A stretch of DNA of 64,000 nucleotides. Origin: Takakia lepidozioides. Lineage: Eukaryota > Plantae > Bryophyta. The notes beneath the pieces were generated by a model. The model searched no databases. It was given only the letters and a program-made list of their open reading frames with translations, and had not been told where the DNA came from. The stretch covers positions 12,958,001 to 13,022,000 of the forward strand of contig CM060734.1 of assembly GCA_030704615.1 (NCBI GenBank), given 5' to 3'. The position numbers were made by a program, and so were the translations under genes. Shown here in pieces: positions 27,857 to 60,500 of the stretch. The stretch's first letter is position 1. Every line of letters begins with the position of its first letter.

Positions 27857-28157
27857 GTTATCTAGTGTGCTGGTGCTAAGCTAGATACAATGTTTGTTTT
27901 AGCATTATTATAATATATATCTTGGGGCGGGAGTCCATCTGGCCCTGCTGTTTCCATGGGCTGTGCGCGCAGATTTAGTTGTCGTCTCTGCTCGTGAGTT
28001 TGAAAACCAAGAGGTGTGGAGGTTGAAGACTTTGATAGTTGGCTTCCCTACTCTCTTTCACTAGGACGGAGGGAGACGAGACTCGTGTAAACTTTTGGAT
28101 TCGGACCCAAAACAGTCGGGAGTGGCTGGATCACGAAGTGCAAACAGTTTTGTGGTG

Positions 28158-28256
28158 GCTTCCTCTGGTGGAGGTGTTGCTGCTGCACCTGCCGGAGAAA
28201 AGGAGGAAGCGAAGGAGGAGTCTGATGATGACATGGGTTTCAGTCTTTTCGACTAA
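28158..28256 (+). pseudogene. Captured fragment of a 60S acidic ribosomal P-protein (P1/P2-type) C-terminus
   Basis: Translates to ASSGGGVAAAPAGEKEEAKEESDDDMGFSLFD*, the conserved P-stalk tail. No in-frame ATG follows the upstream stop at 28062. Confidence 0.9.
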
Positions 28257-34160: not shown

Positions 34161-34179
34161 TCCCAGTATGGTCGCCAAA

Positions 34180-34998
34180 TGTCGCGCGGCTTTTACTCAC
34201 CCATCCCTTCGCTATCCGAGGCGGAAACTCCAAGATAGAAGAGTTGGAAATCTCTAAGTACTCAGCCCGCGCAGAACAATCAGTCATGACCTACAGCTAG
34301 TGTATCATGGGGGTGTTTCCTATGCATTTCCCTTTTTGCATTCATCTTAGCTACCTTTGGCATTGATAATTAAGTATCAGTTTGCTTCATCAATCTATCG
34401 GTTTCCTTCACTCATCCATTCAATCCACAGCTTCTCTCAGATCTCTCTACACAGTGTGATTGTATCGTATAAGTATCAGATTATGATTTATCAGGTATCA
34501 GGCCGAAGTCATTATGTCTCTATTCTGCTCTCCAATATCACTACAGCTTTGCATATAACAAGCATCTACTAATCCTCTTTCCTCCTTCATCGTGCTCTCC
34601 ATCTCTTGCCTCCGATCTCCGCTCCTGCCTGACTCCGAAGTCCCCCCCCTTCATTCCCCGTTTCTCCCTTTTATCCTCCTATCCGCGGTTCTAACCGTTT
34701 CCCTCTCTAACCGTCGTCTGTGAACTAACATGTTCCCTTCACAGGTGTTGTTCCCCACAGTCGTTCCCTATTATCGTGACAGCTGTGTCAAGCGGTGACT
34801 GGCTGTGTTTGGCTGTGTCGGGCTGTGACTGGCTGTGTGGGCTGTGTCTGCTGTGACGACCGTGACGGGCTGTGTGGGCTGTGACGACTGTGACGGGCTG
34901 TGTTGGCTGTGTGCCCTGTGACTGCTGTGACGACTGTGACGGGCTGTGTGGGCTGTGACGACTGTGACGGGCTGTGTTGGCTGTGTGGCCTGTGACTG
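34180..34998 (-). repeat. Partial family B LTR (3' portion), followed by TT and an 18-nt PBS/tRNA-like copy at 34160-34177
   Basis: Near-identical to 41584-~42440. Merges into the post-pol CACAGCC array at ~34999. Confidence 0.9.
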
Positions 34999-35342
34999 GC
35001 TGTGATGCACTGTGGTAAGCTGTGATAGGCTGTGACACGCTGTGGTATGTTGTTATAGGCTGTGTTGCGTCGTGATGGGCTGTGATAGGCTGTGTCACGT
35101 TTGTTTTGCCCACCCTGGTCGTATATGCTGGGCCTAGCAACTAGTGTTCCATACTCCGTTCGTAACACTGGTGCAGCCCGTGACTGCTCTTGCGGTTCAA
35201 CATGCAAATCATGCTGCAGGGGTTTGTCATGGATACCACTGTACCCCTTCAACTTATTTGCATTCACTCTTCCCAGCATTTCTTTGTTAATGGTTTGTAA
35301 CATGGCAGTGTTGTTATCATACATCTTTTGTATGACATAAGG

Positions 35343-38300: not shown

Positions 38301-40974
38301 ATACTCTCTGACTCCTCGAGGTCTTCTTGTAGCAGGTAATCTACTAGATTTCTTTGTGGTAATTTGTATCTCGTGCATCCCATTATGCACAGTTAGTAAC
38401 TGAGAATTCCAGTCATGGAATACCCTGGCCTGTTTCAGCCATGGACGTCCCAATAATAAGGAGTAAGCCTCCATGACTTCATCCATTTTTAATACAGTTA
38501 CTGTGATCATAAAGATCATTTTCTGTATCTGTATCTTAACTCCTCTTATTAATCCCAATGGCTATACACTTCTTTGATCTGCCATTGTTACTGTAAATGG
38601 GGCTGGTTTCATGTTACTTAGACCAAGCTTCTTCCTTAATTGGTCTGTCATGATATTTACTCCAGAACCACCATCTATCAGTACATCAGTTAGTTCTGTG
38701 CTTCCAATTCTCAATTGGATTACTGGCATAGAATCATCAAAGTCCATGACTGGTTCTCGCCCTTCCGGCTTCACATTATAACTGGTCACCTTGCTGTTCA
38801 GGTCTGTGTTTCCTGTCTCTTGGGCAATTCGATTGATTGCCTGATACAGCCTGTGCCTACAATAAGGTGCCACAGCTAATAGCTGTCCAATGGTAATTTC
38901 TGCTTTGGTCTGACATATTACTGCAGCCAAAGTCTCTTCATTACTTTGCATGTCTGCATCTTCTTTTTTCCTTTCTTCCTCACTCCCTTCTTTTTCTCCA
39001 TCCGAATCAGAGGAATCTGCCACAGGAATATCAGTACTCTTTTGCATTTCCCTTATAGTATCTGCCACTTCCTTGTGCAGTTCCTTCTCATCTTTCCAAG
39101 TCTCTTCATCTTCAGGCATATCATTGCCACTTCCAGTCTCATCTTCTTCCTCTTCTACTGGAGGTATTAGTTTGGCTTTACTTCTTGTTACTATCATTGT
39201 ACTTACTTCTGGTACAACACATGGCCTAACCATGTGAGCTGCCACCACTGGGCCCTCATTCACAGGAGCTCTCATCTCATTCTGGTGTCTTATCCAGAAT
39301 GAACAGGCTGCCTTGCGATGTCCTGGCTGATTACAATAGTAACATAGCTCTTCACCATTGGGTCCTCGCCCTTGGTCTGTTCTTGGATTATTTCTATAAT
39401 CCTGATTCCCGGGCTGGTAATTCCCCCTTGGGTTACCCTGATAGTTGCCTCTGGAATTCCCTTGGTAATTCCCTCTTGAATTACCTCTTCCTTCCATGCC
39501 ATTGTTATAACCACCAGACCTACCATAGTGGTCCTGATCATTATTTCTTCTTGGCTGGGGCTGCACCTGATGCACCCTTACTTGCCTAGGTTCTCTTGCA
39601 GCTGTCCTTCTGTTGTAGTAACAATTCTCAGTAGAATGGTTATCCATTTTACAGATAGTACAGTGTTTCTCCTTCATGTGGCATTCTGTGGTGGTATGGC
39701 CTTCATTCTGGCATTTTGCACACCATACACCCTTCCTCCAATGTGTTGCAGCCTCTGTGGCATACTTCTTCAAGATTTCTTCCAATTTTTTTTCATAGTT
39801 ATCCCTCTTCAACTTCTCCTTTCTCTTCAACAGTTTCATGCTTCTTCTGCTTCAGCTGTTGTAAACTTCCATACACTTCATCCTCAGTTTTACTTGTCCT
39901 GAACCTATTTCGAAATGCTGTATTCAAGCCATTCCAGGTTAGGAAATGATTATCAGGGAATCTTGCATACCATTCACTTGCTTTCTTGATAAGTGAACAA
40001 GGAAACAGTCTCATCTTGGCATCATCGCCATTCTCATTGTTCACTATACACATGTGCTCAAATTGGCTAATGTGTACATCGGGATCCCCTTTTCCTGAAT
40101 ATATTGGAAAGGGTGGTTTTGCCCGTGTTGGTTGTAACGCCATCTGTGGCCCTTCCTTCTGCCCACTGGCAGGTGCTGGCACCCTTGCTGGTGCTGGTCC
40201 TTCTGGACCTGTTGTTTTTGTGGTGGATCTTCCACCAAGTGGTGGCCCTTGAGCACTCCTTGCTTCTGGTCCCACGATATTCACAGTATTCCCAGCTTCA
40301 GTTGCACTACTTCCCACACTCCCTGTCCCCCCAGAGCCAGATCCAGGCAGCCCGCCTGATCCCCCTGAGCCGACACCTTCGTTGGCCTGTGATCCAAGTG
40401 CTCCACTTGATCCAGGTCCAACGGGTTGGGATGTCCTGGTTGTAGTCTCAACCTCAGCTGTTGGGTCTACTTCTTCATATTCTTCCTCTTCTAATTTCTT
40501 CTCTCTGTTTTCATCCTCCAAGTTCTGCCCTTGGGTTTCTTCTTCACTCATGTAACTCAACTGTAATGGTGTTGGAGAGTCTGAACTCTCCGTTGGCTCT
40601 GCCACATCCTCTTCTCCTTCTTCATCTTCTGCTTCAGAAACTGGAGTTCCTGCTTTTGGTGTTCCATGCCAACTCTTATCAAAGATTTCTGTCAAGTCTT
40701 TTATCCAAGGATGTACCTCAGATCTTTCTCCTCGTGATTGATCTTCTTCCTGTACCAATTCCCTTAATCTTTCTTGCAAAGAAACAGAAGGAGTGGCATC
40801 CAACTCTAGTTCTTCCGGTATAGGTGATGCACTTTTTGATCTTGATGGTGTGAGAGGTCCAGATGATTCCCCTATGTCTATTCCTCTCTCCCAAAGATAT
40901 GGATAATTAGCTTTCAGATAGCTTTCTCTTTTTGATGAATATCTTTGTCGTCTAGCTTCTCTTTCATCACTCAT
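35343..40974 (-). pseudogene. Family B gag-pol (Gag CCHC, PR, RT, RNase H, integrase) with stops and a 266-bp gag deletion
   Basis: CYYCNQPGHRKAAC, LIDGGSG, FLDDFSVY, HCDAS...YSTTERE, GGHF...CDEC, WGLDFVGP, FISDQG, NGQAE. The deletion corresponds to 63367-63632 of the third copy. Confidence 0.95.
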
Positions 40975-40995
40975 GTCCCATGTCTTTCATTTCTT

Positions 40996-41691
40996 TTAAT
41001 GTGGCAATAACCAAAACTCTCTTCTGTAATATCTCTCGTATATGCCTGGGTTTCTTTCAAGCTTCAATGCACCCTTGGCTATACTTGAAATCTCCGTTAC
41101 CATATAACCATATGGCAAACAAGTCTGAAAAGCTGTTCTTGGTGTGAGTTTGATCCACAAAATATCCTTTGGAATCCAATTCTTTACCAGTACAAGCTCT
41201 TCATGCATATGAGTATAAACATTCACCTTTCTTTCTTCCCAGCCTTCAAACTCTACTCGTTTAATGGATAGCAACGCTATCACATAAACTAATGTTGGTA
41301 ACCAACGTGCTCTTCCTCTACAGGCTACCTGATAAATCTTTATCACTCCTTTCTCCAGACCCCATTCTGGATCAGCATCATGCACTCGTTTAAGAATATT
41401 TTCTTTACATCCGTCTGGCAATTCCAAGAACCTTTGAAAGAATTGTTTGGACAATCTTTCTTCCTTCGTTCCACAGGGAATTTGATTCACTTCAAATTCT
41501 TTAATGGTCCAACCACCATGATCCCACCAGATGCCTGTCACATCTGGTTGTTCATGTCCCAGGTCCCCAGTATGGTCGCCAAATGTCGCGCGGCTTTTAC
41601 TCACCCATCCCTTCGCTATCCGAGGCGGAAACTCCAAGATAGAAGAGTTGGAAATCTCTAAGTACTCAGCCCGCGCAGAACAATCAGTCAT
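40996..41691 (-). CDS. Family B ORF0 (231 aa) starting inside the LTR and reading through the PBS
   Basis: Open from the ATG 108 nt inside the LTR end, through the PBS, to a stop 22 nt before the gag ATG. The LTR-encoded part is codon-conserved in the old copy at 9927-10034. Confidence 0.6.
   Translation of the reverse strand: MTDCSARAEYLEISNSSILEFPPRIAKGWVSKSRATFGDHTGDLGHEQPDVTGIWWDHGGWTIKEFEVNQIPCGTKEERLSKQFFQRFLELPDGCKENILKRVHDADPEWGLEKGVIKIYQVACRGRARWLPTLVYVIALLSIKRVEFEGWEERKVNVYTHMHEELVLVKNWIPKDILWIKLTPRTAFQTCLPYGYMVTEISSIAKGALKLERNPGIYERYYRREFWLLPH
41566..41581 (-). promoter_or_regulatory. Primer-binding site of family B (tRNA-Arg(UCG)-like)
   Basis: TGGCGACCATACTGGG lies 2 nt after the LTR CA and is complementary to a tRNA 3' end ...CCCAGUAUGGUCGCCA, similar to plant tRNA-Arg(UCG). 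Confidence 0.8.
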
Positions 41692-42596
41692 GACCTACAG
41701 CTAGTGTATCATGGGGGTGTTTCATATGCATTTCCCTTTTTGCATTCATCTTAGCTACCTTTGGCATTGATAATTAAGTATCAGTTTGCTTCATCAATCT
41801 ATCGGTTTCCTTCACTCATCCATTCAATCCACGGCTTCTCTCAGATCTCTCTACACAGTGTGATTGTATCGTATAAGTATCAGATTATGATTTATCAGGT
41901 ATCAGGCCGAAGTCATTATGTCTCTATTCTGCTCTCCAATATCACTACAGCTTTGCATATAACAAGCATCTACTAATCCTCTTTCCTCCTTCATTGTGCT
42001 CTCCATCTCTTGCTCCGATCTCCGCTCCTGCCTGACTCCGAAGTCCCCCCCCTTCATTCCCCGTTTCTCCCTTTTATCCTCCTATCCGCGGTTCTAACCG
42101 TTTCCCTCTCTAACCGTCGTCTGTGAACTAACATGTTCCCTTCACAGGTGTTGTTCCCCACAGTCGTTCCCTATTATCGTGACAGCTGTGTCAAGCGGTG
42201 ACTGGCTGTGTTTGGCTGTGTCGGGCTGTGACTGGCTGTGTGGCTGTGCCGGGCTGTGACTGGCTGTGTGGGCTGTGTCTGCTGTGACGACTGTGACGGG
42301 CTGTGTGGGCTGTGACGACTGTGACGGGCTGTGTTGGCTGTGTGTTGGCTGTGTGGCCTGTGACTGCTGTGACGACTGTGACGGGCTGTGTGGGCTGTGA
42401 CGACTGTGACGGGCTGTGTTGGCTGTGTGGCCTGTGACTGCTGTGACGACTGTGACGGGCTGTGTGGGCTATGTAACCCCCCTCTATAGTGTGCTGCTGT
42501 CACCCCTAAGGCTCCTGTTGGTCTCAGTCTGTGCAAAAATTAAGGGTACCCTACAGATCCCGTATAAGTGTCTAAGTCCCCTACAGTCCTCTAACA
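41584..42596 (-). repeat. Family B 5' LTR (1013 bp, TG...CA) with internal CACAGC(C) minisatellite
   Basis: TGTTAGAGG...CCGCGCGACA on the minus strand, followed by the PBS. Confidence 0.95.
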
Positions 42597-42656
42597 TATG
42601 ACACAGCCTGTCACAGCTCAACACAGCCTACTAAAATTACACGAACCATAGAATCA

Positions 42657-45600
42657 GTGACAAGTGGACACATAAAAACTTCAGGAAAATGGATGACGGA
42701 AGAGGAAACGGAAATTACTTTAAAAATAGACACGTGGAGGTCAGGGTGCGACACACAGCAGAGAATGAAGTGCAAGGACAGGTGTCAAAAAGAAAGAGGA
42801 AAAGAACGGCCGTCAAATGGGATGAAAGGCGGGCCCATTAATGAATACGGAAAAAGGGAAACAGATCGAACGGCAAGTACAGAAAAGCTGAATTCATGTC
42901 GCATGTGTGATCCTAGTGGACTATCCAACAGGGAAAGTCCACTAAAGAAGATAAAAGTTAAAATCCAGTCACAGCAAATACAGCCAATAGAAAACCAGAG
43001 AAATGATCAAGAAAATGAAAGAAAATTGGGCGCAAGAGGCGGCGTCGTTCTGAGTAACGGGCGTCTCGACAGGACAGGCCATAAATGCTATAACTTGGAA
43101 ACTATGGAGGAACTAACCAACTATACGCTCGCAATATTACTTACGCAATGGCATAGACACGAAACGACAGAGCAGAGCTTTTCTCTTGAACAATGCTTGC
43201 AAGCCCCGCAGGCTTACAAGAGATTACCCATAGCTTTCTGCGGCAACCATACGTTTCTGCTTTGTGCACTACAGGCATTCCTGCAGTTGTTACAGCCAAA
43301 GCAGTTCTGTGAGTCTAAGATGAAGAGAGTGAGAGGAATGGAGGAAATCAGGGTGAAGAGCACCACAATTCTGCAGAAACAAACAATGGCTACCCCACAG
43401 GCGATAAAGATACTGGAGGAGCTGAGATTGGAAGGATTGCAAAGTCTAGATTGGACACTACACCATAGACAGTACATGTTACAATTTTTGCAGAACTTTG
43501 AGCCAAGGACAGGAACAACAACGGTGAAGGGAGTTGAATTAATGCTTACTCCCCTATACCTCCAGCAATTGTTTCGATTGCCAACAGGTCAGGTGCATGT
43601 GGGGGAACACAGGGCAAGACTACAAATAGGGGACTTATTCCAAGAAGGGAGTTTCTTTAAAACTCAGGGTTATGCTTGTACCAAAGCTGTGTACCCAGGG
43701 TTAAGAGAGATAGGCCAGGTATTGAACGTTCTGTTTGCCCTGAAACAGAACCAACAATATTTGAGCAGATCCTTCACAGAGGAAATACTCAAAGGCCTGA
43801 AGGGACAAGAGGTACAATGGGCGGACATTATGTACAACGCACTAGTAGAGGAGATGAAAAGATTACAAGGTACTACCGCAAAGTCTCCTATCATAGTGTC
43901 TGGCCCAATCATTGCTCAAATAATCCTTAATTCTGGCATACTTAATGCACAAGAAAGGAAGGAAATGGGAGTGTTTGAGCCAGAAACAACTGCAATGGAA
44001 GAGCAAGGCTCTTCACACAGTGAGGGTGGACTAGCAGCACAACCCGAGACTAAGATGCAGAGAAGGGGAAAGACTGTAGTGGCGGATCCACTGGCTTCAC
44101 GGATTCCGCATGATAATGTTTCCCAAGCTCATGACCAGGAAGGGGCACAGCAGCACAAAAGAATGTTATTACTGGAAGCAGGACCTTCAGAGAGGGAGGA
44201 GGAAGTTACTTCTGCATCACAGCCAACACAGCCACTTGAACGACTTGTCACAAGGTCACAAGTTATCCATGCAGCTCAACCCGAAATAATTGATTTGGAA
44301 AGTGAAGGGATAGAGATTCCAACTACAGAGCAGATAGTGGCAGAAATAGAGAAAGGGGACCTTCTCTATGAATATTCTGGTCTGGTCAAGGAGACAGAAA
44401 TCCCAGAGGTGCAACAGTTGCCCAAGGGAAATCCTGAGGTGCATATAATGCACACACCTGTGTTGGAGGTACCACAGGCGGAAGGTCATGACACTGTAAC
44501 ACCAGTCATAGATGAAGTAGTTCAGGAAGAAAATCCGGTGGGACAATGGCCTGAATGGTTAGTGAGACATCATACTGTTGAAGATCGGGAGGAACAGCAG
44601 CAACCTCACCATGATGACCCTCAACAGGCAATGCTGATGAGTTCCATAGGCAGGACACTTAATTTGTTGGGGACTTATGTCAAATCCCATGTTCCAATTA
44701 CCCAATTGACAGCCTTGAAAAGAGGAACTCAGGAAGGAGTTTGAGGCTCGACTTGCCACTGAGTGTGCAAACAAGGTCGATGAAGAGGTCACTCTCAAGA
44801 TGAAGCAGGACTTGGGCAATACAGAAATGGCTTTGCAGTTGGCCAAGCAACAACTGATTGAGGCAAACCTCACGCAAGACCAGTTGCACGAAGCACATAA
44901 GCAACAGCTATACCAAATGCAGGTGCAGCATGAAAGCAAGTTGCAAGAACTGAATGCACTACATACGGAGTTGCAGACAGTGCATAACAGGATGGAGATA
45001 CAATGTGCTACAATTACAACTATGCTTGACCAATCAACAAAAGAAATAAACAGTCAAGCGGAAAAATGTACGAAGGCAGAAGAAGAGAATGTTGAGCAAA
45101 TGAAGCTCATTGTCGATATGAAGAATACAATCTGTCGCCATGAAGATACTTTCAAGCAATACAGGCAGAGGGAAGCTGATCAAGAGAAACACATCGTGGA
45201 GTTGCAACAAACCATCGTGGCCAATAGAAATGAAATCGCGGTCAGTAACAAGGCTTCGAAGGAAGCCAATAATCTACTTGCTGCCTATGCGCAATTGGTT
45301 GAGCCACAGGCGAAGCGCATGGAGGCTTTACAACAGCAGTTGGAATTGTACAAGCTAAGAGAAGAGCAAACTCTCAGGGGAACCACAAGCAGCTTGGTGG
45401 ATAACAGCCTTATGCAGGTCTGGTTAGCACAAGGGCCAGTAGAGGGCAAAAGCCCACGGAAACTCACCCAAAGCGAGATGAATGAGCTCAGACTGCAGGT
45501 GCAGAACATTGCCACAACTACTATAGACAATGTCTATAGTAGGATAGCAGAGTTACAAGAGGATGTAGACGGACTCCAGACTCAAGTGGAAGACCTCACT

Positions 45601-46872
45601 TCAAACATCGACCAAAGAGTCTATATCCCTCAAGAACAGCTAATGGCTTCTTATTTGCAAGCCAGAACTCTGGCTTTTCAGTCTTCACAGGAGGTGCAGG
45701 AAATGCCAATGATACAGGAGCCAGTACCACCACCACCACAACAGGTCACTGTACCAATAGCTGAACCTGGGGTTACTACAACCACACCACAGCCACCACA
45801 GCCGGAGGTATGGGGCAATGCCGCTTTTAACCCACCTAAAACTCCAGCTGCAAGGGAGTACAGCAGGGCTATGCTTATGCCCTTCAACCAAATTCCCATC
45901 ATGTTGGATTTGGCTTGGAAAGAATTTAGTCCTCCGTAGTCATTCGCACATTACTACCAAATCATGCGTATTTGGCTGCCAGTGGCAACTAGGACTAAAG
46001 TTCTTCCAAACAATCGACATATTGAAGATCATCACTTTGCACAATACTGGCACGAGGCAGGTACCATGTTGAGGGAATTGGTTGCTTTCCAGGTTGTACA
46101 TGGACTCATTTATACCAAGACCAAGGAGATAGCAAGTATTGTCATGGGGTGCGGGCTATACTACGCTGCTTGTTTTCTGGTACGTTACCACATTGAGCAA
46201 CAAAAGATGCAAACACGCTTTCAAAGTTACTCCAGTGGAGATCATTGGGTATTACCTTCGGTGCCACCTCATATATACCTATATGACCCAAAAGTTATGA
46301 TGCAGAAGGATTCTCAAATTCGTTCATGATTTCAAGCAGCCTGCAACCAATTGTCAACACAGAAATTCGGACTTGATGACATTTTCTATAAGGGACATGT
46401 GGCATGGAAGTACTTGCACGCTGCACCAGTAATTGGTACCCCACTCATCTGGACAGACAAGGAGCTCAGTGCCTACACCAATTTTGCTGTTCAGCGGTTA
46501 CACCAAGTTGTAAAATACAAACTTCCAGACATGGTAGGACAGCATTGTATGCCCCAGATGATTCCACAAAAAGTTCGAAAATTAAAACACCTGAGAGGCG
46601 ATGAGGATTCTGATACAATTGTTTCTTCACACAATTCTTTTGACATGGGAGAAGACTATGCAATTCAGATGGAAGAGAAGAAACAAAGGGGATCTCCTAT
46701 GCCGGAAAGATTACCTCGATATCAACCTCCAGAAGGCCTCACTTATCCAGGTAGTGATCAACCATCTCCATCAACCAGAGACAGACCTCGGGCTCGTACA
46801 CACAGCCCACCACGAAACTCTCAACGTCAACAAGGTGCTCACTCACAAAGGTTTGCTACTCGGAAACAGTAA
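42657..46872 (+). pseudogene. Family B 3' extra ORF (~1400 codons; Athila/SIRE extra-ORF-like segment plus long coiled coil), one frameshift and two stops
   Basis: Colinear ORFs 42657-44744, 44800-45939, 45964-46329 and 46351-46872 end just before the PPT. Homologous segments occur at 7245-9290 and 57551-58470. Confidence 0.8.
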
Positions 46873-46893
46873 ACCGTGAGGACACGGCTTTTT

Positions 46894-47828
46894 GGGGGGA
46901 AGGGGTAATGTTAGAGGACTGTAGGGGACTTAGACACTTATACGGGATCTGTAGGGTACCCTTAATTTTTGCACAGACTGAGACCAACAGGAGCCTTAGG
47001 GGTGACAGCAGCGCACTATAGAGGGGGGTTACATAGCCCACACAGCCCGTCACAGTCGTCACAGCAGTCACAGGCCACACAGCCAACACAGCCCGTCACA
47101 GTCGTCACAGCCCACACAGCCCGTCACAGTCGTCACAGCCCACACAGCCAGTCACAGCCCGGCACAGCCACACAGCCAGTCACAGCCCGACACAGCCAAA
47201 CACAGCCAGTCACCGCTTGACACAACTGTCACGATAATAGGGAACGACTGTGGGGAACAACACCTGTGAAGGGAACATGTTAGTTCACAGACGACGGTTA
47301 GAGAGGGAAACGGTTAGAACCGCGGATAGGAGGATAAAAGGGAGAAACGGGGAATGAAGGGGGGGGACTTCGGAGTCAGGCAGGAGCGGAGATCGGAGGC
47401 AAGAGATGGAGAGCACGATGAAGGAGGAAAGAGGATTAGTAGATGCTTGTTATATGCAAAGCTGTAGTGATATTGGAGAGCAGAATAGAGACATAATGAC
47501 TTCGGCCTGATACCTGATAAATCATAATCTGATACTTATACGATACAATCACACTGTGTAGAGAGATCTGAGAGAAGCTGTGGATTGAATGGATGAGTGA
47601 AGGAAACCGATAGATTGATGAAGCAAACTGATACTTAATTATCAATGCCAAAGGTAGCTAAGATGAATGCAAAAAGGGAAATGCATAGGAAACACCCCCA
47701 TGATACACTAGCTGTAGGTCATGACTGATTGTTCTGCGCGGGCTGAGTACTTAGAGATTTCCAACTCTTCTATCTTGGAGTTTCCGCCTCGGATAGCGAA
47801 GGGATGGGTGAGTAAAAGCCGCGCGACA
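46894..47828 (+). repeat. Family B PPT (46894-46905) and 3' LTR (46909-47828, 920 bp)
   Basis: GGGGGGAAGGGG-taa-TGTTAGAGG...GCGCGACA. Shorter minisatellite than the 5' LTR. Confidence 0.95.
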
Positions 47829-48269
47829 GTAGTGGCAGAGGGATCCTCGGATTTGAGGGTCAAGACTGCCACGGCTGCGCCCTGGCAAGCTGCAGCTGCC
47901 AAGTTGACGGAGCTGCCAGCTAGGCCAGCCTTTGAGCGCGCCATGGTGACATCTGGAGTTGTCTTGTTAGACAACCAGGATGGCATTTTCTCTTTGAGTG
48001 GACCGGCAGGCAAGAAGTACCGGCCACTGCGGGTCTTGTTGGACTCGGGAGCTAAGCCACTGATGTTGGGTAGGGCTGCTATTGCAGGTTTGGGCCTCAT
48101 GGAGGCGGATATGGAGCCTTGTCCTTTCCAGATACAGACATCTCTGGGAGGATCAGAGCAGGCTCGGGGCATGACTCAGTTGGCCATTAGACTGCAGCCG
48201 GATCACCCTACAGATGGCTCAGTGATGCGAGCCAAGGCCATTGTGACAGACGCGGTCTCTTATGATGTC
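47829..48269 (+). repeat. 441-bp direct duplication of element A protease region (copy of 33720-34160)
   Basis: Constant offset of 14109 bp. The only difference I noticed is C/T at 34154/48263. Confidence 0.95.
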
Positions 48270-48739
48270 CTCGTGGGTGGGGCAGTGTTATACCCCATGG
48301 GCTTCACCCTGGACTTTTGGGAGGAGTCAGCATTCTAACAGGCCCCTGATGGCAGTACAGCAGTCAGGGGATGGTCAATCGTGCACAGCTCCCTGTGACT
48401 TCATTGGGGGTTTGCGGCTACCCAACGGGGCAAGAATGCCAACCCTAGCCACCTTTACAGCTGCGTTAGTTGGCCTGAGAGTTGCTGGGAAGGCAATGCC
48501 CATGCAGAGGAATATTGTCACCCACCTCCAGCAGAGCAGGATGATATGCATGGTATGGTGGAGTGGCCTGCCTGGTTGCTCCACACTCCATTGTGGGGTA
48601 ACGCAGGATTTGCAGCAGTTGCTGATGCGACGGGTGCACAAGCCTGTGTAGAGGCTTTGTACCGTCAGGGAGAGGAGAGGTGGGTATTGCACCAGGAGCA
48701 CCTCAGTTGTCACCATTGGATACCACACACTATTATTGT

Positions 48740-49740
48740 GTGGCAGTATCCGGATAAAGGCATTTGCCTCTGGACTTGTTTGGCGGGATCAGCACCGTAT
48801 TGGCTGCTGGTTTACAGGCATGTGTGCGGGTAATGCGTTACCTGATGTGTTTGAGAGGATGAGACTGCACGACGGCGTCTTACTGCGTGTTGCTCAGTTG
48901 GTACAAAACAGCATTACCTGCTTTGTTGCTAGTGTCTGCAGTTCGTGGATACCAACAAGCCTGCCAGCAGACATTTCGTTGCTGGGGGCGCCGGATTTGT
49001 AGCAGGTTGGCTCCATTGATCTTGTAGTGGCAGGTTGGCCCCTGCCAAGGCATTCATTAGCCGGGCATGACAATGGATTGCGAGACTCGAGAACGGAACT
49101 GTCTTTTTGGGAGATGGTGCGGATTTTGCGCCACTTGCAGCTTCATCAAGCTGTATCGCCAGCATACATCTTGTAGAATGTGCAACTGATGGGCGATTCT
49201 CGGGCCAGGGTGATGGCCAGTGTGCATCAAGTCCGGTCGTGGTTGGGTTGACAGTGCTGCTGGATGCATCTGCAGTGGGATCACGGCTCATCGTCCACGG
49301 CTATGGTAGACTAACTTGATTCCACCCCACCCGCACTGCCAAGCGTGCATTTGATGGGTGTGCAGAGCGGCCAACACCCTCATAGTGGACACATTTTGGA
49401 CATAGGGAGGCAGTTCTCAACGTGTGAGACTGAGACCGTTCGCCTTTGGCAGTGGTCAAGAGGGTGGGTCAACCACGAGCCGCATTACCTACACTGCTCA
49501 GCTTCCCAGGATCCCATGCTTTTCGGGATGGTGGACCTGGCCTCCTATGGGATGCTCAGTTGCAACAGTTAGTGGAGCCTAATGCCGACGAGCGGCGCGG
49601 CTATGGTTTTCACTGGGACCACGCGGCGGTGCTTCTCTCTTTCTGAGGCATCACGTCGTCAGGTGTTGGGGCAAGCAATGGATCTCAATTGCTTGACCTG
49701 GATTATCAGCTTGGCTATGGCTGAGCAACGTAGAGTGCGG
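48740..49740 (+). pseudogene. DNA (cytosine-5)-methyltransferase domain, DNMT3-like, within the element A polyprotein (frameshifted in this assembly)
   Basis: Motif I DLFGGI (48773-48790). Motif IV DLVVAGWP/CQG (49018-49051), followed by GLRDSRT..FWEMVRIL. Motif VI YIL*NV (49165-49182). Motif VIII LDASAVGS/AHRPRLW*TNL (to 49318). Motifs IX-X EPNADER..AM.F and SEASRRQVLGQAMD (49654-49683). All in canonical order. Confidence 0.9.
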
Positions 49741-50149
49741 AGTGCACTTCCCTTGACGGTCTCTCTGCCTACCGAGACGGTACAACACAGGCGCGAGTGG
49801 GGGGCGAGCGGTGAGGACCACGGGGTGTAGACATCCATGGCACACGTTGGAGGTGCTCGAGGTTCAGAGGGAGTTGGCAGCCAAGCCAGCTGTGATGGAT
49901 GAGGTTGGGAATTCTTTTCGGATGAGGAGGTTCTCAATGATGAGAATGATGGGGCAGGATGAGGCCTTTCATTGACTGAGCCGGAAGGGAGTACTGCTCA
50001 AGAGGTTCAAGCATAGCAACCACGGGACGCGTCCTCTACCTCTAAGCCCACTGGACTTAAGGTTGCAGTTACGGAGGATAATTGGGAGCCTGACATTGGA
50101 CCCATTGTCCCGGAGGAGAGAGACGACGTATACGGCGGTTCCTGAGGGC

Positions 50150-53015
50150 TTACAAGAAATTGCTTTGCCTTCAGTTTGAAGGACTTGGGAGCACTGAAGG
50201 GTCAAGAGATCCGTATTAAGTTGTCACTGACACGCCAATCTTTCGGAGACCCTATAGATACAGTGACATGGAGAGGTCTTTGATTCAGATGAGGACTCAA
50301 GATCTCTGGAGGCAGGTTTGGTGGAGCTCTCTGTGGAGAGTATGCTTCAGCCACAGTGATGCCAGCCAGAAGGATGTCTATGGCAATTGGACGGAGAGAC
50401 GTAGTTGCGGTGATTACCGGCCCTGTAAATCGTCAGACCAAGTCCGATAGGTATGCCATGTGGTGCCGACACCAGAGGAGATCTTTTATGCCATTGGGCA
50501 TTCCAAGGTCTTTAGCACGTTGGATTTACGATCCGGATATCACCAGTCGCCGATCGAGGAGTCGGATAGCAAAAGACGGCATTCTGGGGGATCAATGAGC
50601 ACGGGAAAGATTGCCTATACCAGTGGCGGTTCTTACCATTTGGGCTTAAAAACGCTCCCGCTGATTTTCAAAGAGTCATGGACAGGATTCTAGCAGGGGT
50701 GTGGAGTTTGCTCGGTGCTACATAGATGACAATCATCATCTTTAGTGCTACGGTGGAGGAGCATGAGAGACACCTTCAGGGGGTATTTGAGCGCTTGAGG
50801 GCGCACGGATTGAATTACATCGGGAAAGTGCAAGTTTTCCACAACCAGATTGAGTATCTGGGTCACATGATATATCCTAGAGGATTGGGGTACAGCAGAC
50901 TGATAGAGTCCATTGCACAGGTTTCCACGCCCCACGGATGTGAGCCGAGTTTCGAGCTTTCATGGGGTTTAGCAAACTATTACAGACGGTTTGGTTAGGG
51001 ATTTAGTGCCATTGCAAAGGTCTAACTCCTAACAAGCTGACCAAGGGGACCAGGAGTGGCAGGGGATAATGAGCAAGAACAAGCTTTTCAAGAGCTCAAG
51101 GCGAGGTTGACCTCGACGCCCATCTTGAGACGACCTATCAGGGGGCGTCCTTTTCAGCTGCATACAGATTGGAGCATGTTGGTGGGGCTTGGAGCGATGC
51201 TCACACATGGGATGATAGGGAAAGAGTTTCGTAGTGGCTATGCTAGCCGCTCAAACAATGTTGCAGAGTCTAAGTATAGCTCATATGAGGGAGAAATGCT
51301 TAGCTGCATTGTGGGCCGTGGCACACTTCAGGTGCTATCTATACGGCAATCTCTTCAACCCTTGTCACGGATCACCAACCACTCAGTGGTTGATAGAGTC
51401 ACAATCTTACGGGGAAGCTTGCACGGTGGGCACTCATCCTTCAAGAGTATGACTTTCAGGTGGTTGCATCGACCGGGTTTGGTCAATCGCAATGCAGATG
51501 GGTTGAGTCGCAATCCATGCACGAGCCAGCAGGATGACACTGGAGCTCTGTGGCATGGTGAGACGGACTAGGAGATGGTGCCCGGATGGCATGCATCTGC
51601 ATTTCTTTTCTGTGTATCTTGGCAGCGGAAGGCCAGGTTGGACCTGCAACAGGGATGACTGTAGATCAGTGTCTGAGGACCCTGAGCCAGCATGAGCAAG
51701 GTGGCGCCAAAGAATATACATAAGGATTCAGTTGTGTTTGGACTACCTCCGCACTAGAGACACTGCAGCCACTGTGACTGCCAAGGAGAGGGATCGGATC
51801 CTACACACAAGCCAAGAGGTTCAAGTGGGAGGGACACACCTGCTCCGAGTGTGGTAGGATGGTCGAGTGAGGATTGTGCCTCACCCACACAGCTGGCACG
51901 GTTAGTGTGCATGCCCATGAGGAGTTGGGGCATTTGGGGTGCGACGCACTCATAGTCTACTGCAGGGGGCAGTATTGGTGGCGTGGTATGCACACAGAGG
52001 TGCCCAATTTTGTGGCTAGGTGCATGGTGTGTGACAGGGTGCGTGCTTCATCAACGCCCTACTCCACAATTGCACCCTCTTCTTTTCGATCATGGGATTT
52101 GGGCTACAGGTGGAGTCTTGACTTCGCAGGGCCGTTGCCACTGACCATGCGCCACAAACAGTACGTGTTGGTGATGGTGGAGCACTTCTCCAAGTGGATT
52201 GATTGGTTCCATTGCCTGATAAGGCTAGTGAGGGAGCTGCGTATGCATTCTTGGATTGTGTGCTTAGCGCGATTCGGTGCTCCAGCTGAGGTACTCACGG
52301 ACCAAGGGAGAGAGTTCTTGGGGAGTTTCAGGCTTTGTGTGACAGGCCTTGATATACCACCGCACCACTTCTCGGATCATCCTGAGGCCGATGGCTTGGC
52401 AGAGAGAGTTGGTTTTCAGACAGTAAGAGGGGTTTGCGCAAGTATGGCTTGCAGAGGGACACCTAGAGATTTGGACCTTCAGTTACCCTGGTTAGCCATG
52501 GGCTACAGGTTCAGCAAGCAAGCATCACTTGCCTCCTTTCTCACCAAATTTCTTCTCTTTGGCCGAGAGCCGCATTTGCCTACATCCATTCGTAGAGAAG
52601 CTACTACAGTTCTTAACCTTGACGATCCGGACGTGTGGGGCACGTGCATGTGAGCAGCGTGCAGAGTTGTTCAAGAGAGTCATGCCCATGGCTTTCGGGA
52701 ACCTTGCCATTGCACAACACCGTGATACGTTGAGGTATGCTACCATACGTGGTGGGGGCTATCGTCCTGGGGTTCGGAGATTCAACCCTGGTGACTATGT
52801 CTATCTGCAGCAAACTGCTCCTACGACCTTGGATGTGATTTGCAGGACGTGTTATTTTGAGGGTTCGAGAGGTCTTGCCCTCAGGCGTCTTGGTCTTGGA
52901 GGGTCGGGATGGCATAACTTGGGAGGACCATGTGCGTAATTGTGCGCCATGTCACCTTCCAAATGTCGATGGCAGGATAGACCCAAACTTGGCAGTGGTA
53001 TCTGTAGGTTTGAGG
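50150..53015 (+). pseudogene. Element A RT - RNase H - integrase (many indels)
   Basis: DRYAM/PTPEEIF, LDLRSGYHQ, PFGLKNAPADFQR, YIDD (50719-50730), LHTDWS, YSSYEGE, NADGLSR, HEELGH...CMVC, WSLDFAGP, LTDQGREF, DGLAER. Confidence 0.93.
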
Positions 53016-53158
53016 TGCATGTTGTGTGGGTCTGCTAGAGGGGCAGCCCCCATACTGGTGTGTGATCGATGCTCTAGAGGTTGCATATGGGATGCTTGAC
53101 TCCACCTCTTGAGATGGTTCCGGATGGGGATTGGTTATGTCCACATTGCATTGGATAG
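53016..53158 (+). CDS. PHD finger at the integrase C-terminus of element A
   Basis: CMLCGSARGAAPILVCDRCSRG[W]HMGCLTPPLEMVPDGDWLCPHC, a C4HC3 finger once one missing G at ~53083 is restored. Confidence 0.9.
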
Positions 53159-53406
53159 TGGGAGTGGATACAACCATGGAAGGCTAACAAAAACGCAAGG
53201 CCCAGCTACTAGGAGACCTTGAACACACGAGGTCCTGGCTCAAGTTCACAGATTGCAAGACGGCGACTAACGATGGGGCTACTCTTGTACCCGGCCTCTT
53301 GGTCTATAGGGTTTGAGTGCAATAGGGACAGTGATAGAGGACTTAGTACGGCTGTGGCTATTACATCTTGTAGCTATCTGGAGGTAGAGGGACCTATCCA
53401 CCAGCT

Positions 53407-53947
53407 AGGGGGGCGATTGTGGCAGACTACTTTATTGTGCATATATGTGTGGTGTGGTTTGGACAGCGATGTAGTTGTGTAGCGATATGTATGCGCACGA
53501 CAGCTGTCAAGTTAAATAAGCACAGTGTGAAAACAACTAGAATAAAGCTAGTTATTTATATTTAACACTTGGATTTAGGTCAAGTGTTAAATCAGGTGTC
53601 AAGTTTAGTTTGACACCTGAACCGTCTTATCTTCACGAGAGCGGCAGTCGCGCAGCTCATCTCTCTCGAGTTGAGCCTGCGCGACCGAGCTCCTTCATGC
53701 GTTTAGATCTGAGTGTGCTTATGATGGGAGTGTAGGTTGTTGTGGGGTGGAGTCCCCATAGCGTGGGGTGCCCTTGGCTCGACTTCTATTTTAAAGAGTG
53801 ATAGCGATGGATTTCATATTTCTTGTGTTGAGAGTGTGTGTCTTTTTTAGCTTGTTTATCATTGTGGCAGACTACTTTATTGTGCATATATGTGTGGTGT
53901 GGTTTGGACAGCGATGTAGTTGTGTAGCGATATGTATGCGCACGACA
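53407..53947 (+). repeat. Element A 3' end: PPT (AGGGGGG, 53407-53413), X1 (53418-53502), GC, Y2 (53505-53861), T, X2 (53863-53947)
   Basis: X1 and X2 are identical 85-bp TG...CA units. Y2 matches the 5' terminal repeat. Confidence 0.92.
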
Positions 53948-56180
53948 AGGGATTGATCTTCCACACCTGGTGGGGGTACAAAGAGCTAGAAGAAGCACCC
54001 CCATTATCCTAGCCTGGAGGCCCTCCCACCTCGCTGGACTACTCAGCTTGCTGCTGGGCCTGGGTTCAGCTCTATGCAAATGTTCTCAAGAGAAACGACT
54101 CCAGCTTCTTTACATTCTCAACTCCTTGTGGGCTTCAAGGGACATCATCTGCCGGAGGACAGAGGATTCATGCGTCTTCAAGCCTCTCTTCTCCCATTGT
54201 TGCTGACTTTCCTTCCTCCTGGCCCTCCCTTCTCGACAGGGACGAAGACATTAATTGGAAGCACTGCAAGAATAGGAATTCTTAAATGAAGGCTCGCCTT
54301 AATTTTGAGCCCCTACGTAGGAAGAAATAGTGCTTGGCTGGGTTTTTCAGTGCTTGGTCTATTAGGTGTAGATGCTCTTGGTAGCCTCTGTATGTTTAGG
54401 CCTTGGACATTTTGGACTCCGGTTCTTTGCTAGGCTGTTTAATCAGAGAACCAGCTGTGTTTCTGGCTGCCCATTGTGGCTGCTCTGGGAGGCTCCCCAC
54501 GATTGTATTTATGGCCCTGTCGAGGTATTTTTTCCTCGCTTCTTTAACTTGAGTAATAGGGCCTCCATTCACCTTTTGTTTTAGAAATAAAAATAAAAAT
54601 AGACACAATACCCGCCGCGGAACACTTGGTTATCATGACTATTGTTAACCCCTAAACGACGATGCGATCCCAAATCGAGTCGCGTAAGTCTTCTGTCACG
54701 ATCCAACGTTTATGGATGACAGTGGATGGAAGTGATTCCTAAAGATAAAGAACGGGTTAGGGAGAAGCACATGTGGGAATTTACAACGCCCTAAAATAAT
54801 AAAAGCTCTGCTCCCTAGAATTTTTCAAAGTGCCAAGGGTATGGAAATCCAGAGCTGACCTGCCCACGTGAGCAATCTTTGAAAATAACCTCTAGGGCTC
54901 AAACTTTATCAAAATGCCAATTTTTTTGAACAAGGTGCTATGTATGTTAGTGTGCACTTACTTACTAGAGGAATTAGAAAACTAATATAACCTCAATGGT
55001 GTATTTCGGAAAGAAGCCAAACCATGAAAATTTTACATACAAAGCAGCCTATCTCAGATTTTGGAATCTCGGTATGCTTTTTAGGGGAGAGAGTCGCTTA
55101 GGTGCGATTATGGAGGGCATATGCCTCAGGAAATTCAACTCGATTTTATTTTTTTACTTTTATTTTTTTTCGACACTTGAATTTAGTGGTCAAACCATTT
55201 TTCCATGCAATCTTAGAATATATTTACAAATTGGGGCAGATTATTTGTTATAATCTCCCAAATGCAATGGTCAAATTGCCTACACTTTTAATAGGACATT
55301 GATGTAGTAGATATGCACATAAGTATAAGGTTCATCCCCATGGATTATTGGGGGTAAGAAGTTACACTCTTATCCACGAGGTATGTTTTAGTGGGCCCAC
55401 CACAATCAGTCTCGTCCTTTAAGGGTTAACACTTAACACGTGGGTAGGTGCGGTGGAAATCATATATCATTTTTTTTGTTTTTAATTATAAATTTGAAGC
55501 ACTGATTTCTGGCGCTATGGGTTTATTCCACTTCCTCTACCAGACTTAGTTCTATCAGGGGGATGTAGTCGATAGATGGGCCTGGCAGAGAAGACGGAAT
55601 CTCACGAAAAGGACGCAACAGACTAAGACATCCACAAAACCTTTATAAGCACACTCAAGCACACCGTTACACCAAGAGCGCACACACGTAAGATGAAATG
55701 CACCACCTTTACTGCCACGGCAGTGTAGCTTAAATAGTATTAGGTCATAATCTAATCCTTGTGCCGCTATGGCACTTACATACGGGCCAGCCAAATGTCC
55801 TTCTAGCATAGCCATAGAAAGAAGCCAGATCACCCAGTCCCATCCTAAATCTAATCCTAAACTAGCTGTTAGAATAAGACATCATATAATAAAGCCGAGT
55901 TGTTGCCAGCTCATCCTTATGCACAAAACGTAAGTTCATCCAGACTACATCCTGGTTCCGTCCATCCCTAAATCATCTGGAGTGCATCCTCCCTCCATCC
56001 ATCCAAGTCGAGAAAACAGGTGAGGATGAATCCCAGCTCCACATATGTGAAGCATGCTGGGGCCTCTAGAAATTGTGAGCTCCTCCGAGCGAAGGGCTCA
56101 GGAAGAACAAAATTGAATCTAGCCTAAACAAACTACACACCCAGTACACGAGGGATGAAAAAACCTAGGGGAAGAAAACC

Positions 56181-57070: not shown

Positions 57071-57553
57071 TGCCCTTGCAGTAAACTATGAGTGTGTCGC
57101 ACCCCAAAATGCCCCAACTCCTCATGGGCATGCCGCACTAACCATGCACACTGTGTTGGGTGAGGCACAATCCTCACACGACCATCCTCCCATACTCGGG
57201 GCAGCTGTGTCCCCTCCCACTTGAACCTCTTGGCTCATTGCAAGATCCGATCCCTCTCCTTGGCAGTCACAGTGGTTGTCGTGTCTCCACTGCGGAGATA
57301 GTCCAACAGAGCTGAATCCTTATGTATATCTCTGGCGCCATCTGGCTCGTCACTGGCCTTAGGATCCTCAGACACTCCGTCTACAGTCATCCCTGTTGTA
57401 GGTCCAATCTGGCCTGTCGCTGCCAAGATACACAAAAATGCATATGCGTATCATCCCGGCACCATCTCCTCGTCCGTCTCACCACGCCACCAAACTCCAG
57501 TGTCATCATGCTGGCTCGTGCTGGCTGCAACTCAATCCATCCGCATCCCGATT
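57071..57553 (-). mobile_element. Second family A fragment (RNase H / integrase linker)
   Basis: Reverse-complement homolog of ~51485-51970 (DIHKDS..LDYLR.GDT..TVTAKERDRIL). Confidence 0.9.
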
Positions 57554-60500
57554 CAACTCCCTTCACCGTTGTTGTTCCTGTCTTTGGCTCAAAGTTCTGC
57601 AAAAATTGTAACATGTACTGTCTATGGTGTAATGTCCAATCTATGCTTTGCAATCCTTGCAATCTCAGCTCCTCCAGTGGGGTAGCAATCGTTTGTTTCT
57701 GCAGAATTGTGGTGCTCTTCACCTTGATTTCCTCCATTCCTCTCACTCTCTTCATTTTAGACTCACAGAACTGTTTTGGCTGTAACAACTGCATAAATGC
57801 CTGTAGTGCACAAAGCATAAACGTATGGTTGCCACAGAAAGCTATGGGTAATTTCTTGTAAGCTTGCGGGGCTTGCAAGCATCGCTCAAGAGAAAAGCTC
57901 CGCTCTGTTCTTTCGTGTCTATGCTGCGTAAGTAATATTGCGAGCATATAATCTGTTAGTTCCTCCATAGTTTCCAAGCTATAGCATTGATGGTCTGTCC
58001 CGTCGAGACGCCCGTTACTCAGAACGACGCCGCCTCTTGCGCTCAATTTCCCTCCATTTTCTTGATCCTTTCTCTGGTTTTCTATTGGCTGTATCCGCTG
58101 TGACTGGATTTTAGATTTTATTTTCTTTAGTGGACTTTCCCTGCTGGATAGTCCACTAGGATCACACATGTGACAAGAATTTTGCTTTTCTGTACTTGCC
58201 GTTCGTTCCGTTTCCCTTTTTCCGTATTCATTAATGAGCCCGCCTTTCATCCCTTTTGACGGCCGTTCTTGTCCTCTTTCTTTATGACACCTGTTCTTGC
58301 ACTTCCTTCTCAGCTGTGTGTCGCGCCCTGACTTCCACGTGTCTATTTTTAAACTAGTTTCCGTTTTTTCTTCCATCAGCCATTTTCCTGAAGTTATTAT
58401 GCGTCCACCTGTCACTGATTCTATGGATCGTGTAACCCTAGTAGGCTGTGTTGAGCTGTGACAGGCTGTGTCATACTGGGGTACACTGTGATAGGCTGTG
58501 ATGCACTGTGGTAAGCTGTGATAGGCTGTGACACGCCGTGCTGGGCTGTGATAGGCTGTGTCACGTCGTGATGGGCTGTGATAGGCTGTGCTTTGCCTTG
58601 ATGGGCTGTGATAGGCCGTGGTCCGCCTTGACGGGCTGTGATAGGCTGTGTCACGCTTGTTTTGCCCGCCCTGATCATATATGCTCGGCCTAGCGACAAG
58701 TGCTCCATACTCCGTTCGTAACACTGGTGCAGCCCTTGACTGCTCTTGCGTTTCAACATGCAAATCATGCTGTAATGGTTTGTCATGGATACCACTGTAC
58801 CCCTTCAACTTATTGGCATTGACTCTTCCCAGCATTTCTTTGTTAATGGTTTGTAACATGGCGGTGTTGTTATCATACATCTTTTGTATGACATAAGGTC
58901 CTTTCCATGGTGATTTAAGCTTAGAAGCTTTAATCTTTCCCTTTTTCTGCAACCATAGAACCAAATCTCCCGTCTTAAAAGTTTTTAACTTGCCCTCATC
59001 AAACTGTTCCTTCCTCTTCATCTGAATTCTGGTCATATTATCAGCTGCATCAGCACGTACTTCTTCCACATGGTATAATTCATGTTTCCTGACCTTAATG
59101 GAATCTTGCAATTCCATTCTCTTTCCCCACTCCGTTCTCATGGTAGGTAACAGGAATTCCACTGGAAGTAAAGCTTCCATACCATAAACTAATTGGAATG
59201 GTGTATACTTAGTGGTGATTTTATAGGAAGTCCTGTATGACCACAAAGCTGTCAGCAGCTTTGTATCCCAATCCGTTCTGTTTGCATTGACTATCTTAGC
59301 CAAGATAGTGCATAGTATTTTGTTGGTAGCCTCTGCCTGCCCATTACCCTGTGGGTAATATGTTGTACTCTTTCTATGTACAATCATGAACTCTTTAGTC
59401 AACAACTCAATGGTCTCATTCATGAAGTGACTTCCCTGATCACTGATAAATTCTAAGGGACAACCAAATCGTGTAAGTATGTTCTCGTACAGGAACCTTG
59501 CTGTGGACTTGGCTGTATTGTCCCTCAAAGCTTTAGCTTCCACCCACTTCGTAGTATAATCAGTGGCTGTAATTATGTACCTGCTCCGTGTATTCTTGGC
59601 TGGTGGGTTAATTGGTCCAACAAAGTCTAGTCCCCATTTCTGAAATGGTTCCGTAGGCATTGTAGGATGCAAGGCCATCCTCCCAGATCTCTGCAAAGGT
59701 CCTAGCCTCTGACATTCATCACAACTCTGACAATACTCGTGTACATCTTTGAACAAAGTAGGCCACCAGTAACCTGCGAGTAGTATCTTCCTACTTGTAG
59801 TCTCTTCTCCAAATGACCTCCAGCCACTCCTTTATGAACTTCCTCCAAAACTTTATTTACTTCATGGTGGTACAAGCATCGTTTTAGTACTCCATCAGGT
59901 CCTAGCTTATACATTCTGCTTCCTACCATAGTATAAGGTAAAGCTTTGATAGCGATTCTCTTTCTCTGCTCCTTACCATAACTAGGTGGGCACTGACCAT
60001 GAGCAAGGTAGTATCTGATTGGCCACTGCCAATCTAACCAGTCATCTGCACTTCCCTGCACCTCCACTGCAAAGAGACTCGCATCTGGTAATTGATCATC
60101 TATTCCTGTGGCTGGTTCTCCTGTTGATAACCGTGACAAATGATCCGCCACTAGATGCAGTCTCCCAGGCTTGTAAACAACCTCGAACTCAAACTCGTGC
60201 AAGATTATCAACCATCTTGCTATTCTTCCGCTTATCAGAGGTTTGTTTACCAGGTATATCAGAGCCTGGTGATCCACATAGAACATAAACTTTTTGCCCA
60301 ACAGGTAATGCCTGAATTTCTTCACTGCATAGATCATTGCCATGCTTCTTTTTCCGTTGTGCTATAGTTCCTTTCAGCACTGTTCATCAACCGGCTAGCA
60401 TAGTACACAGATGAATCTATATTTCCTGTAACATTCTGGGCTAACACCGCTCCCAATGCTTCTCCTGATGCATCGCAGTGAACATGAAATACTACATGCC

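Follow-up and report, generated by a model that had tools for sequence, protein, structure and literature searches.

Within the window, i.e. the whole stretch of 64,000 nucleotides analysed, positions 27485-53947 are occupied by a Ty3/Gypsy retrotransposon, a broken copy of an abundant family, which carries a DNMT3-type C5 cytosine methyltransferase (DNMT) domain between protease (PR) and reverse transcriptase (RT). The domain is conserved in the family, the element possesses split terminal repeats and a target-site duplication, and a conserved stop codon separates the methyltransferase from RT. DNMT3-bearing Gypsy elements as such are already known from Klebsormidium; for land-plant members and for the conserved stop, the literature searched yielded no report. 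The range of DNMT3-bearing retrotransposons is hereby widened from one charophyte to liverworts and mosses, including Marchantia.

The methyltransferase domain and its element

Three-frame translation reveals motifs I, IV, VI, VIII and X of a C5 methyltransferase on the forward strand between positions 48770 and 49686 (Table 1). As the initial annotation had put forward, all five are present on the sense strand in canonical, unrearranged order, 3' of the protease motif LLDSGA and 5' of the RT motif YIDD. Motif numbering and catalytic roles of the residues follow the usual scheme for C5 methyltransferases. One unbroken piece of 98 codons (with X at stops) matches PF00145 above the cut-off (E 2.9e-5, 24.1 bits, cut-off 22), whereas the other four DNMT pieces and the linker gave no Pfam match when searched singly. 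The frameshift-aware alignment that the initial annotation had suggested, performed with the intact Calypogeia protein P0002, reaches a score of 815, compared to 34 for the reverse complement and 32 to 44 for five shuffled sequences, and covers 1012 bp at 66% identity, interrupted by 12 frameshifts and 4 stops. A search for longer proteins (134 candidates) yielded P0001, an intact PR-DNMT protein which is 66% identical to the 98-codon piece. The identity of the window's DNMT to intact homologs amounts to 62-66%.

Table 1. Features of the element and of related sequences in the window (positions refer to the window).
Feature	Position	Strand	Remarks
Left target-site duplication AGGG	27481-27484	+	same 4 bases at 53948-53951 past right end
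5' terminal repeat A (TG...CA)	27485-27840	+	4 substitutions, 1 gap vs 53505-53861
Putative self-primer within repeat A	27641-27651	+	exact 11-nt complement of 27840-27850
Primer-binding-site (PBS) position, non-tRNA type	27840-27850	+	no TGG start
Gag and protease, 5' part of ORF1	31908-34160	+	one stop 32517-32519, no frameshift in 2253 bp
Nested block, unrelated DNMT-less Gypsy family	34161-47828		13.7 kb, interrupts Gag-PR at 34160 (self-BLAST)
Protease, second LLDSGA copy and C-terminal part	47829-48340	+	LLDSGA 48036-48053
DNMT3-type C5 cytosine methyltransferase domain	48770-49740	+	at least 12 frameshifts, 4 stops in window copy
Motif I LDLFGGI	48770-48790	+	
Motif IV VVAGWP	49024-49041	+	CQG in next frame, 49043-49051
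Motif VI YIL*NV	49165-49182	+	amber codon at Glu position
Motif VIII AHRPRLW*TNL	49286-49318	+	
Motif X RRQVLGQAMDL	49654-49686	+	
ORF1 stop TAG-CAACCA, conserved; predicted site of readthrough	50014-50022	+	in frame with WEPDIG at 50083
Reverse transcriptase, frameshifted	50083-51000	+	YIDD 50719-50730; PF00078 E 4e-11
RNase H	51068-51500	+	PF17919 E 6e-16
DDE integrase, zinc-binding and core	51910-52840	+	PF17921 E 1e-10, PF00665 E 3e-6
PHD finger, integrase C-terminus	53016-53149	+	PF00628 E 2.8e-5
Polypurine tract (PPT)	53404-53417	+	from sequence
Repeat B, first copy	53418-53502	+	identical to 53863-53947
Repeat A, 3' copy	53505-53861	+	B-A junction = palindrome GACA-GC-TGTC
Repeat B, second copy = right element end (CA)	53863-53947	+	
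Second fragment of DNMT-bearing family, RNase H-integrase linker	57073-57553	-	480 bp, 85% identical

The type of the enzyme becomes apparent from the intact close homolog P0003. Compared with PDB sequences it finds DNMT3A/B/C first (E 2e-7 to 2e-4), followed by the weaker matches M.HhaI (0.012), DNMT2 (0.04) and DRM2 (0.55). Its predicted structure (pLDDT 87) gives a best Foldseek match of E 7e-18, and the matches listed are all DNMT3. Sequence and predicted fold of this homolog hence confirm the DNMT3-like identity which had been proposed from the motifs. Assignments to DRM, DNMT2 or the bacterial methylases were discarded, as P0003 ranks DNMT3 far ahead of them and its Foldseek matches are DNMT3. 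Unlike host plant DNMT3, the homologs show no Pfam match for DUF3444. Within 149 near-full domains, a subset of 217 blastp matches, the ENV glutamate is invariant (149/149), the catalytic cysteine is present in 147, and both of these residues together with the two motif VIII arginines (RxR) are kept in 142. In the window copy, the catalytic residues do not lie in one open frame since a frameshift occurs inside motif IV and an amber codon in motif VI; this split is likely due in part to assembly error.

As assembled, the window copy is non-functional. While no frameshift is found in the 2253 bp of Gag-PR, about 11 per kb are present after position 48270. The rate is alike in DNMT, with 12 frameshifts in 1012 bp, in RT-RNase H, with 19 in 1766 bp, and in integrase-PHD, with 7 in 792 bp, so that DNMT is not singled out. 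Many of these breaks probably arise from faulty assembly, e.g. where raw long-read sequence was used to close a gap. Similarity between the terminal repeats is 98.6% and 100%, and the second fragment of the family (Table 1), which sits inside another Gypsy element, keeps its frame where the main copy has 17 gaps in 493 bp. Furthermore, in run X4 (best 40 of 360 rows) read depth leaves no room for the window's letter at 12 of 33 covered sites after 48270, although this sample contains the right flank and the last bases of the element almost letter for letter. All of this, together with the frameshift-free 5' part, argues against real decay, according to which an old defective template was copied in trans. 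We consider such decay doubtful, even though A>G and T>C read changes exceed the reverse ones (X1: 94 versus 57), as if the window copy had lost methylated C, and the read sample may stem from another individual.

The element displays the domain order Gag-PR-RT-RH-IN with a DDE integrase, TG...CA ends, a PPT and a 4-bp target duplication. Gag, with its two knuckles of CCHC-like type (32847 and 32934), is followed by the first LLDSGA copy (33927-33944); the Gag-PR portion is about 51% identical to Marchantia ORF1. Two full co-linear LTRs are absent. Instead, the window and the metagenome loci L038, L043, L075 and L076 exhibit a split A...B-A-B layout, with the order PPT, B, GC, A, T, B at the 3' end of the window element, and the 4-bp target duplication recurs in L038, L043 and L075/L076. 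A DIRS/Ngaro element with a tyrosine recombinase is ruled out by the rve and H2C2 integrase domains, and by the presence of a target duplication. The PHD finger of L038, which is homologous to that of the window, matches those of KMT2C/D, CHD4, PHF21A, KDM5 and ATXR5. The tryptophan two residues ahead of the histidine is replaced by glycine in 45 of 49 matched fingers. The PHD fingers of PHF21A, KDM5-PHD1, CHD4 and AIRE read unmethylated H3K4.

Reverse transcription of the element is possibly self-primed, as an 11-nt stretch of repeat A is complementary to the PBS position (Table 1). None of 2000 mononucleotide shuffles reached a complementarity of this length. Pairing at the same place occurs in L043 (17 nt), L008 (10 nt) and L044 (11 nt) with compensatory letter changes on both sides; in four other loci it was not found, amounting to four of the eight elements examined. 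In the lowest-energy structure that MFE folding gave for the leader, primer and PBS are not paired with each other, so that it is complementarity and covariation that speak for self-priming.

The methyltransferase as a family trait

The DNMT region of P0001 retrieves 68 proteins at E<=1e-20, including ones from Marchantia, Calypogeia, Sphagnum and Closterium, and the whole PR-DNMT query retrieves 280 50%-clusters at E<=1e-30. Among 211 fetched proteins with a DNMT match, the domain precedes RT in 16 and follows RT or RNase H in 59. The DNMT tree places the window among 13 sequences forming a clade with support 1.0, in which all named members (Marchantia, Calypogeia and Sphagnum) are bryophytes; in the RT tree it pairs with Marchantia (support 1.0), i.e. 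both trees group it with Marchantia. The trees (FastTree, midpoint- or outgroup-rooted) were calculated without partial domains and without named Klebsormidium or host DNMT3 sequences. All 30 of 30 bins, DNMT included, are covered in four of four public runs from two samples, the other copies from these runs being short contigs only. Two distant loci from a viral contig collection were left out.

The same position of the domain in relatives, the congruent trees and the coverage in the runs confirm that DNMT is a trait of the family and not a one-off insertion. It is true that the element carries other captured or nested DNA (the P-protein fragment and the Gypsy block described below), and a fragment of a host DNMT3 gene or another insertion might have landed just once between PR and RT. 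Yet, liverwort, moss and alga relatives harbour DNMT at this very position, DNMT and RT trees are congruent, there are no introns, and host plant DNMT3 has a C-terminal DUF3444 for which the homologs lack a Pfam match. The family-wide position and the congruent trees refute a single landing, to which we assign hardly any probability. The notion of a land-plant representative, also part of the initial annotation, is likely correct in view of the clade support of 1.0 and its exclusively bryophyte named members. The host is likely a bryophyte, and less probably another non-seed plant, but it is none of the named species, to whose DNMT that of the window is 62-64% identical.

The dN/dS ratio lies below 1, as had been predicted. 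Between families it amounts to 0.14-0.17 (L003 versus seven Sphagnum-type domains) at dS values of 1.7-2.1, which are near saturation and share one common partner; for close pairs the median is 0.64. In the case of RT, dN/dS is saturated.

Several observations concern individual relatives. A large sister group (P0051, P0057, P0122, P0221 and others) harbours DNMT3 between RNase H and integrase-PHD and forms a separate clade of the DNMT tree; those members seen that carry a name are all Scenedesmus pol proteins. P0022, a member of the DNMT-bearing plant retrotransposon family described here, is annotated in a MAG of a Candidatus Obscuribacterales bacterium and is likely a binning contaminant. 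The Marchantia ORF1 copies P0227, P0228, P0229 and P0232 bear Mp_Vg / MARPO_Y locus names, which denote the male sex chromosome. Marchantia proteins of the set labelled "hypothetical" or "DNA (cytosine-5)-methyltransferase" are in fact ORF1s of transposons, which could distort a tally of host DNMTs.

Kinship to the Klebsormidium type, which the initial annotation had alluded to, is borne out by architecture, namely the split-repeat Gypsy layout with DNMT3 seen in KnitGypsy-Dnmt3 of Klebsormidium nitens. Both share the Gypsy domain set, a DNMT3 domain free of introns and rearrangement, DIRS-like split repeats in an A-coding-B-A-B layout and purifying selection on DNMT (Ka/Ks < 0.2 compared to 0.14-0.17, with dS near saturation, in the window's family) (PMC5890265). 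In KnitGypsy-Dnmt3, however, DNMT resides in one ORF with RT and RNase H, while in the window's clade it ends ORF1 before the conserved stop. As for the putative self-priming, the 4-bp target duplication and PHD of the window element, the accessible text makes no mention of them for KnitGypsy-Dnmt3 (PMC5890265). The host of the latter is a charophyte, that of the window element likely a land plant. SymbioDIRS-Dnmt3 likewise is a retrotransposon that has a DNMT3 domain as well as A-coding-B-A-B repeats, but possesses a tyrosine recombinase in place of a DDE integrase, an unrelated RT and a dinoflagellate host. Its de novo methylation of CG has been demonstrated in yeast (PMC5890265). The self-primed chromoviruses Tcn1 / Tf1-sushi are Gypsy elements with moss and club-moss hosts and predicted self-priming as well; they carry a chromodomain, and the text at hand mentions neither methyltransferase nor PHD (PMC6317226). 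Gypsy-7a_cRei from Chlamydomonas is a further green-lineage Gypsy element with a PHD finger in its polyprotein, DNMT not being among the domains listed in the accessible part of the source (PMC9940879). The host enzymes PpDNMT3a/b share the unrearranged DNMT3-type catalytic domain, but contain DUF3444 and are located outside any retroelement (PMC6453930).

Our literature search, which extended to neither subscription journals nor figures nor bioRxiv supplements, retrieved no report of a DNMT-bearing Gypsy element from land plants. In the available portions of papers by the de Mendoza group, "streptophytes" is the only host term used (10.64898/2026.05.21.726589, PMC12344493). The question raised in 2018 of why a transposon should keep its own silencing enzyme (PMC5890265) can now be tested in the genetic model Marchantia.

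The conserved stop and the possible role of the enzyme

The stop of the window copy lies directly ahead of the RT N-terminus (Table 1). Full-length ORF1 proteins (Gag-PR-DNMT) of the window's clade comprise about 1280-1330 amino acids, and in Marchantia, Calypogeia-type and several further lineages the ORF1 C-terminus is located 65-108 amino acids past motif X. The DNA of L003, L008 and L016 consists of the DNMT frame, a single stop and RT in the same frame. The initial annotation had envisaged a single open Gag-PR-DNMT-RT frame; in the window's clade this does not exist, as the conserved in-frame stop parts DNMT from RT. In the distant relatives P0074, P0220 and Closterium P0166, DNMT to RT are contained in one ORF without stop.

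From 80 metagenome loci, 30 with motif X and enough downstream sequence were evaluated. TAG/TAA-CAACC is present at 23 of these, in 16 cases in frame with motif X, while seven are without the CAACC context; seven of the 23 use TAA. All but one of the 23 (22/23) belong to one Sphagnum-type family with CAACCC, matching five of six motif positions, and a subsequent ATG. These 22 loci are not independent, as they all come from this family, in which the end of ORF1 resembles that of the Sphagnum protein P0060. The exact motif UAG-CAR-YYA occurs in the window and in L003, where the first methionine downstream of the stop falls within RT. UAG-CARYYA is known as the type I readthrough motif of tobamoviruses (PMC3542737). 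Judged by this sequence context, the window stop is likely read through at a low rate. From the placement of ORF1 upstream of the stop it follows that the methyltransferase is likely produced at Gag levels and RT and integrase by readthrough alone. An in-frame stop ahead of the polymerase is common to the window element, tobamoviruses (PMC3542737) and the leaky gag-pol stops of the Copia elements Tca2 and VdLTRE5, which are without CARYYA (PMC3441728). The window element differs from all of them in having protease and DNMT upstream of the stop (PMC3542737, PMC3441728). A literature search on this stop found no paper.

We moderately favour a model in which a Gag-level enzyme encoded ahead of the leaky stop is packed into particles and acts on the element itself by methylating its new cDNA, either ahead of integration or during it. 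ORF1 would build the particle and thereby bring along many DNMT3 domains, which the protease would free from the ORF1 product, while low-rate readthrough would supply RT and integrase. Reverse transcription would be self-primed, the resulting cDNA would be methylated before or at integration, and the integrated form would correspond to a two-LTR-like circle opened at the B-A junction GACA-GC-TGTC, one of two junctions of this kind. The PHD finger might steer integration to unmethylated H3 tails. As a benefit, new copies would arrive resembling host heterochromatin. The related SymbioDIRS-Dnmt3 domains methylate CG de novo; for the KnitGypsy-Dnmt3 domain no methylation was observed in yeast, a result its authors call inconclusive (PMC5890265). 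Extra CpG depletion was not seen in the element, the o/e ratio being 0.46-0.64 versus 0.25-0.41 in the adjacent DNMT-less family. The inactivity of the Klebsormidium domain in yeast and the missing extra CpG loss weaken our main reading.

The predicted stoichiometry would suit an enzyme acting in cis no less than one acting in trans. From the conserved stop, a large excess of methyltransferase over RT is to be expected in each particle, and this weakens the published argument for a cis-only action, which builds on the shared ORF. An active enzyme might mainly act in trans or at the insertion site, on host chromatin or on other copies, guided by PHD in a manner reminiscent of the ADD domain of animal DNMT3. 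The ORF1 placement, which implies a large excess of enzyme over RT or integrase, and the likeness of the PHD to PHF21A, KDM5-PHD1, CHD4 and AIRE fingers, including the glycine mentioned above, are compatible with this, as is the finding that in moss heterochromatin CG and CHH sites are methylated de novo by the host DNMT3b (PMC6453930). However, the ORF1 domain is devoid of a targeting module of its own, the PHD being attached to integrase, and we deem a mainly trans-acting enzyme rather unlikely. Quite improbable, in our estimation, is a domain kept for another role such as RNA methylation, nucleic-acid binding in the particle or self-limited transposition. The authors of the negative yeast assay on KnitGypsy-Dnmt3 raise RNA methylation and self-limitation themselves (PMC5890265), and the lack of CpG depletion would agree with such a role. 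On the other hand, the nearest structures, DNMT3A/B/C, act on DNA and outrank DNMT2 by a wide margin (E 2e-7 versus 0.04), and the catalytic Glu and Cys are almost strictly conserved, as detailed above.

With respect to the stop, a plain terminator has to be considered, in which case pol would arise by reinitiation or from an mRNA that is spliced or internal, and DNMT would be made at Gag levels without any readthrough protein. Reinitiation is possible in the Sphagnum-type family, in which an ATG follows two codons past the stop, and the occurrence of TAA would likewise be in line with mere termination. In L003, by contrast, there is no ATG before RT, and none directly follows the window stop. 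Stop, frame and CAACC are, moreover, conserved between families that have diverged almost to saturation at synonymous sites. A plain terminator therefore appears unlikely to us, and readthrough is the reading we retain.

More tentatively still, and with less than even confidence, we envisage an old DNMT3-Gypsy radiation across the green lineage that reached land plants, in which a tobamovirus-type leaky stop put the methyltransferase at Gag stoichiometry. Each particle would then hold hundreds of de novo methyltransferases which pre-methylate cDNA and possibly host chromatin. Equally tentative is the corresponding distribution, with DNMT before RT in streptophytes and between RNase H and integrase in the Scenedesmus-containing sister group. 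If this radiation took place, bryophytes would possess a transposon-encoded source of de novo methylation, among them Marchantia, in which copies are annotated as hypothetical host genes.

Nested and neighbouring sequences

The nested block (Table 1) is flanked by a 441-bp duplication (33720-34160 corresponding to 47829-48269, with one substitution). It comprises a full element on the reverse strand and a 3' piece on the forward strand. On the right the block terminates in a clean LTR end and on the left in LTR plus about 19 bases of PBS, and it looks like the product of an aberrant one-ended integration. The DNMT-less Gypsy family features long extra 3' ORFs at 42576-46872 (+), 57387-59831 (-) and 7634-9378 (+), which belong to no clear Pfam family and have CACAGC tandem arrays at their borders; the copy at 34161-42597 is apparently without them. 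A third RT-RNase H remnant, at 10518-11950 (+), is only distantly related to the two families. A search of the window for tRNA genes gave none.

The 5' leader of the window element measures about 4 kb compared to about 1 kb in L038. Within it, an acidic ribosomal P protein is represented by its C-terminal tail at 28155-28253 (+; PF00428, E 2e-8), likely a captured host sequence. This tail, a piece of a Myb-like domain at 24624-24953 (-; PF00249, E 1e-7) and the element's PHD account for the three of 74 ORF pieces with a Pfam match above cut-off.
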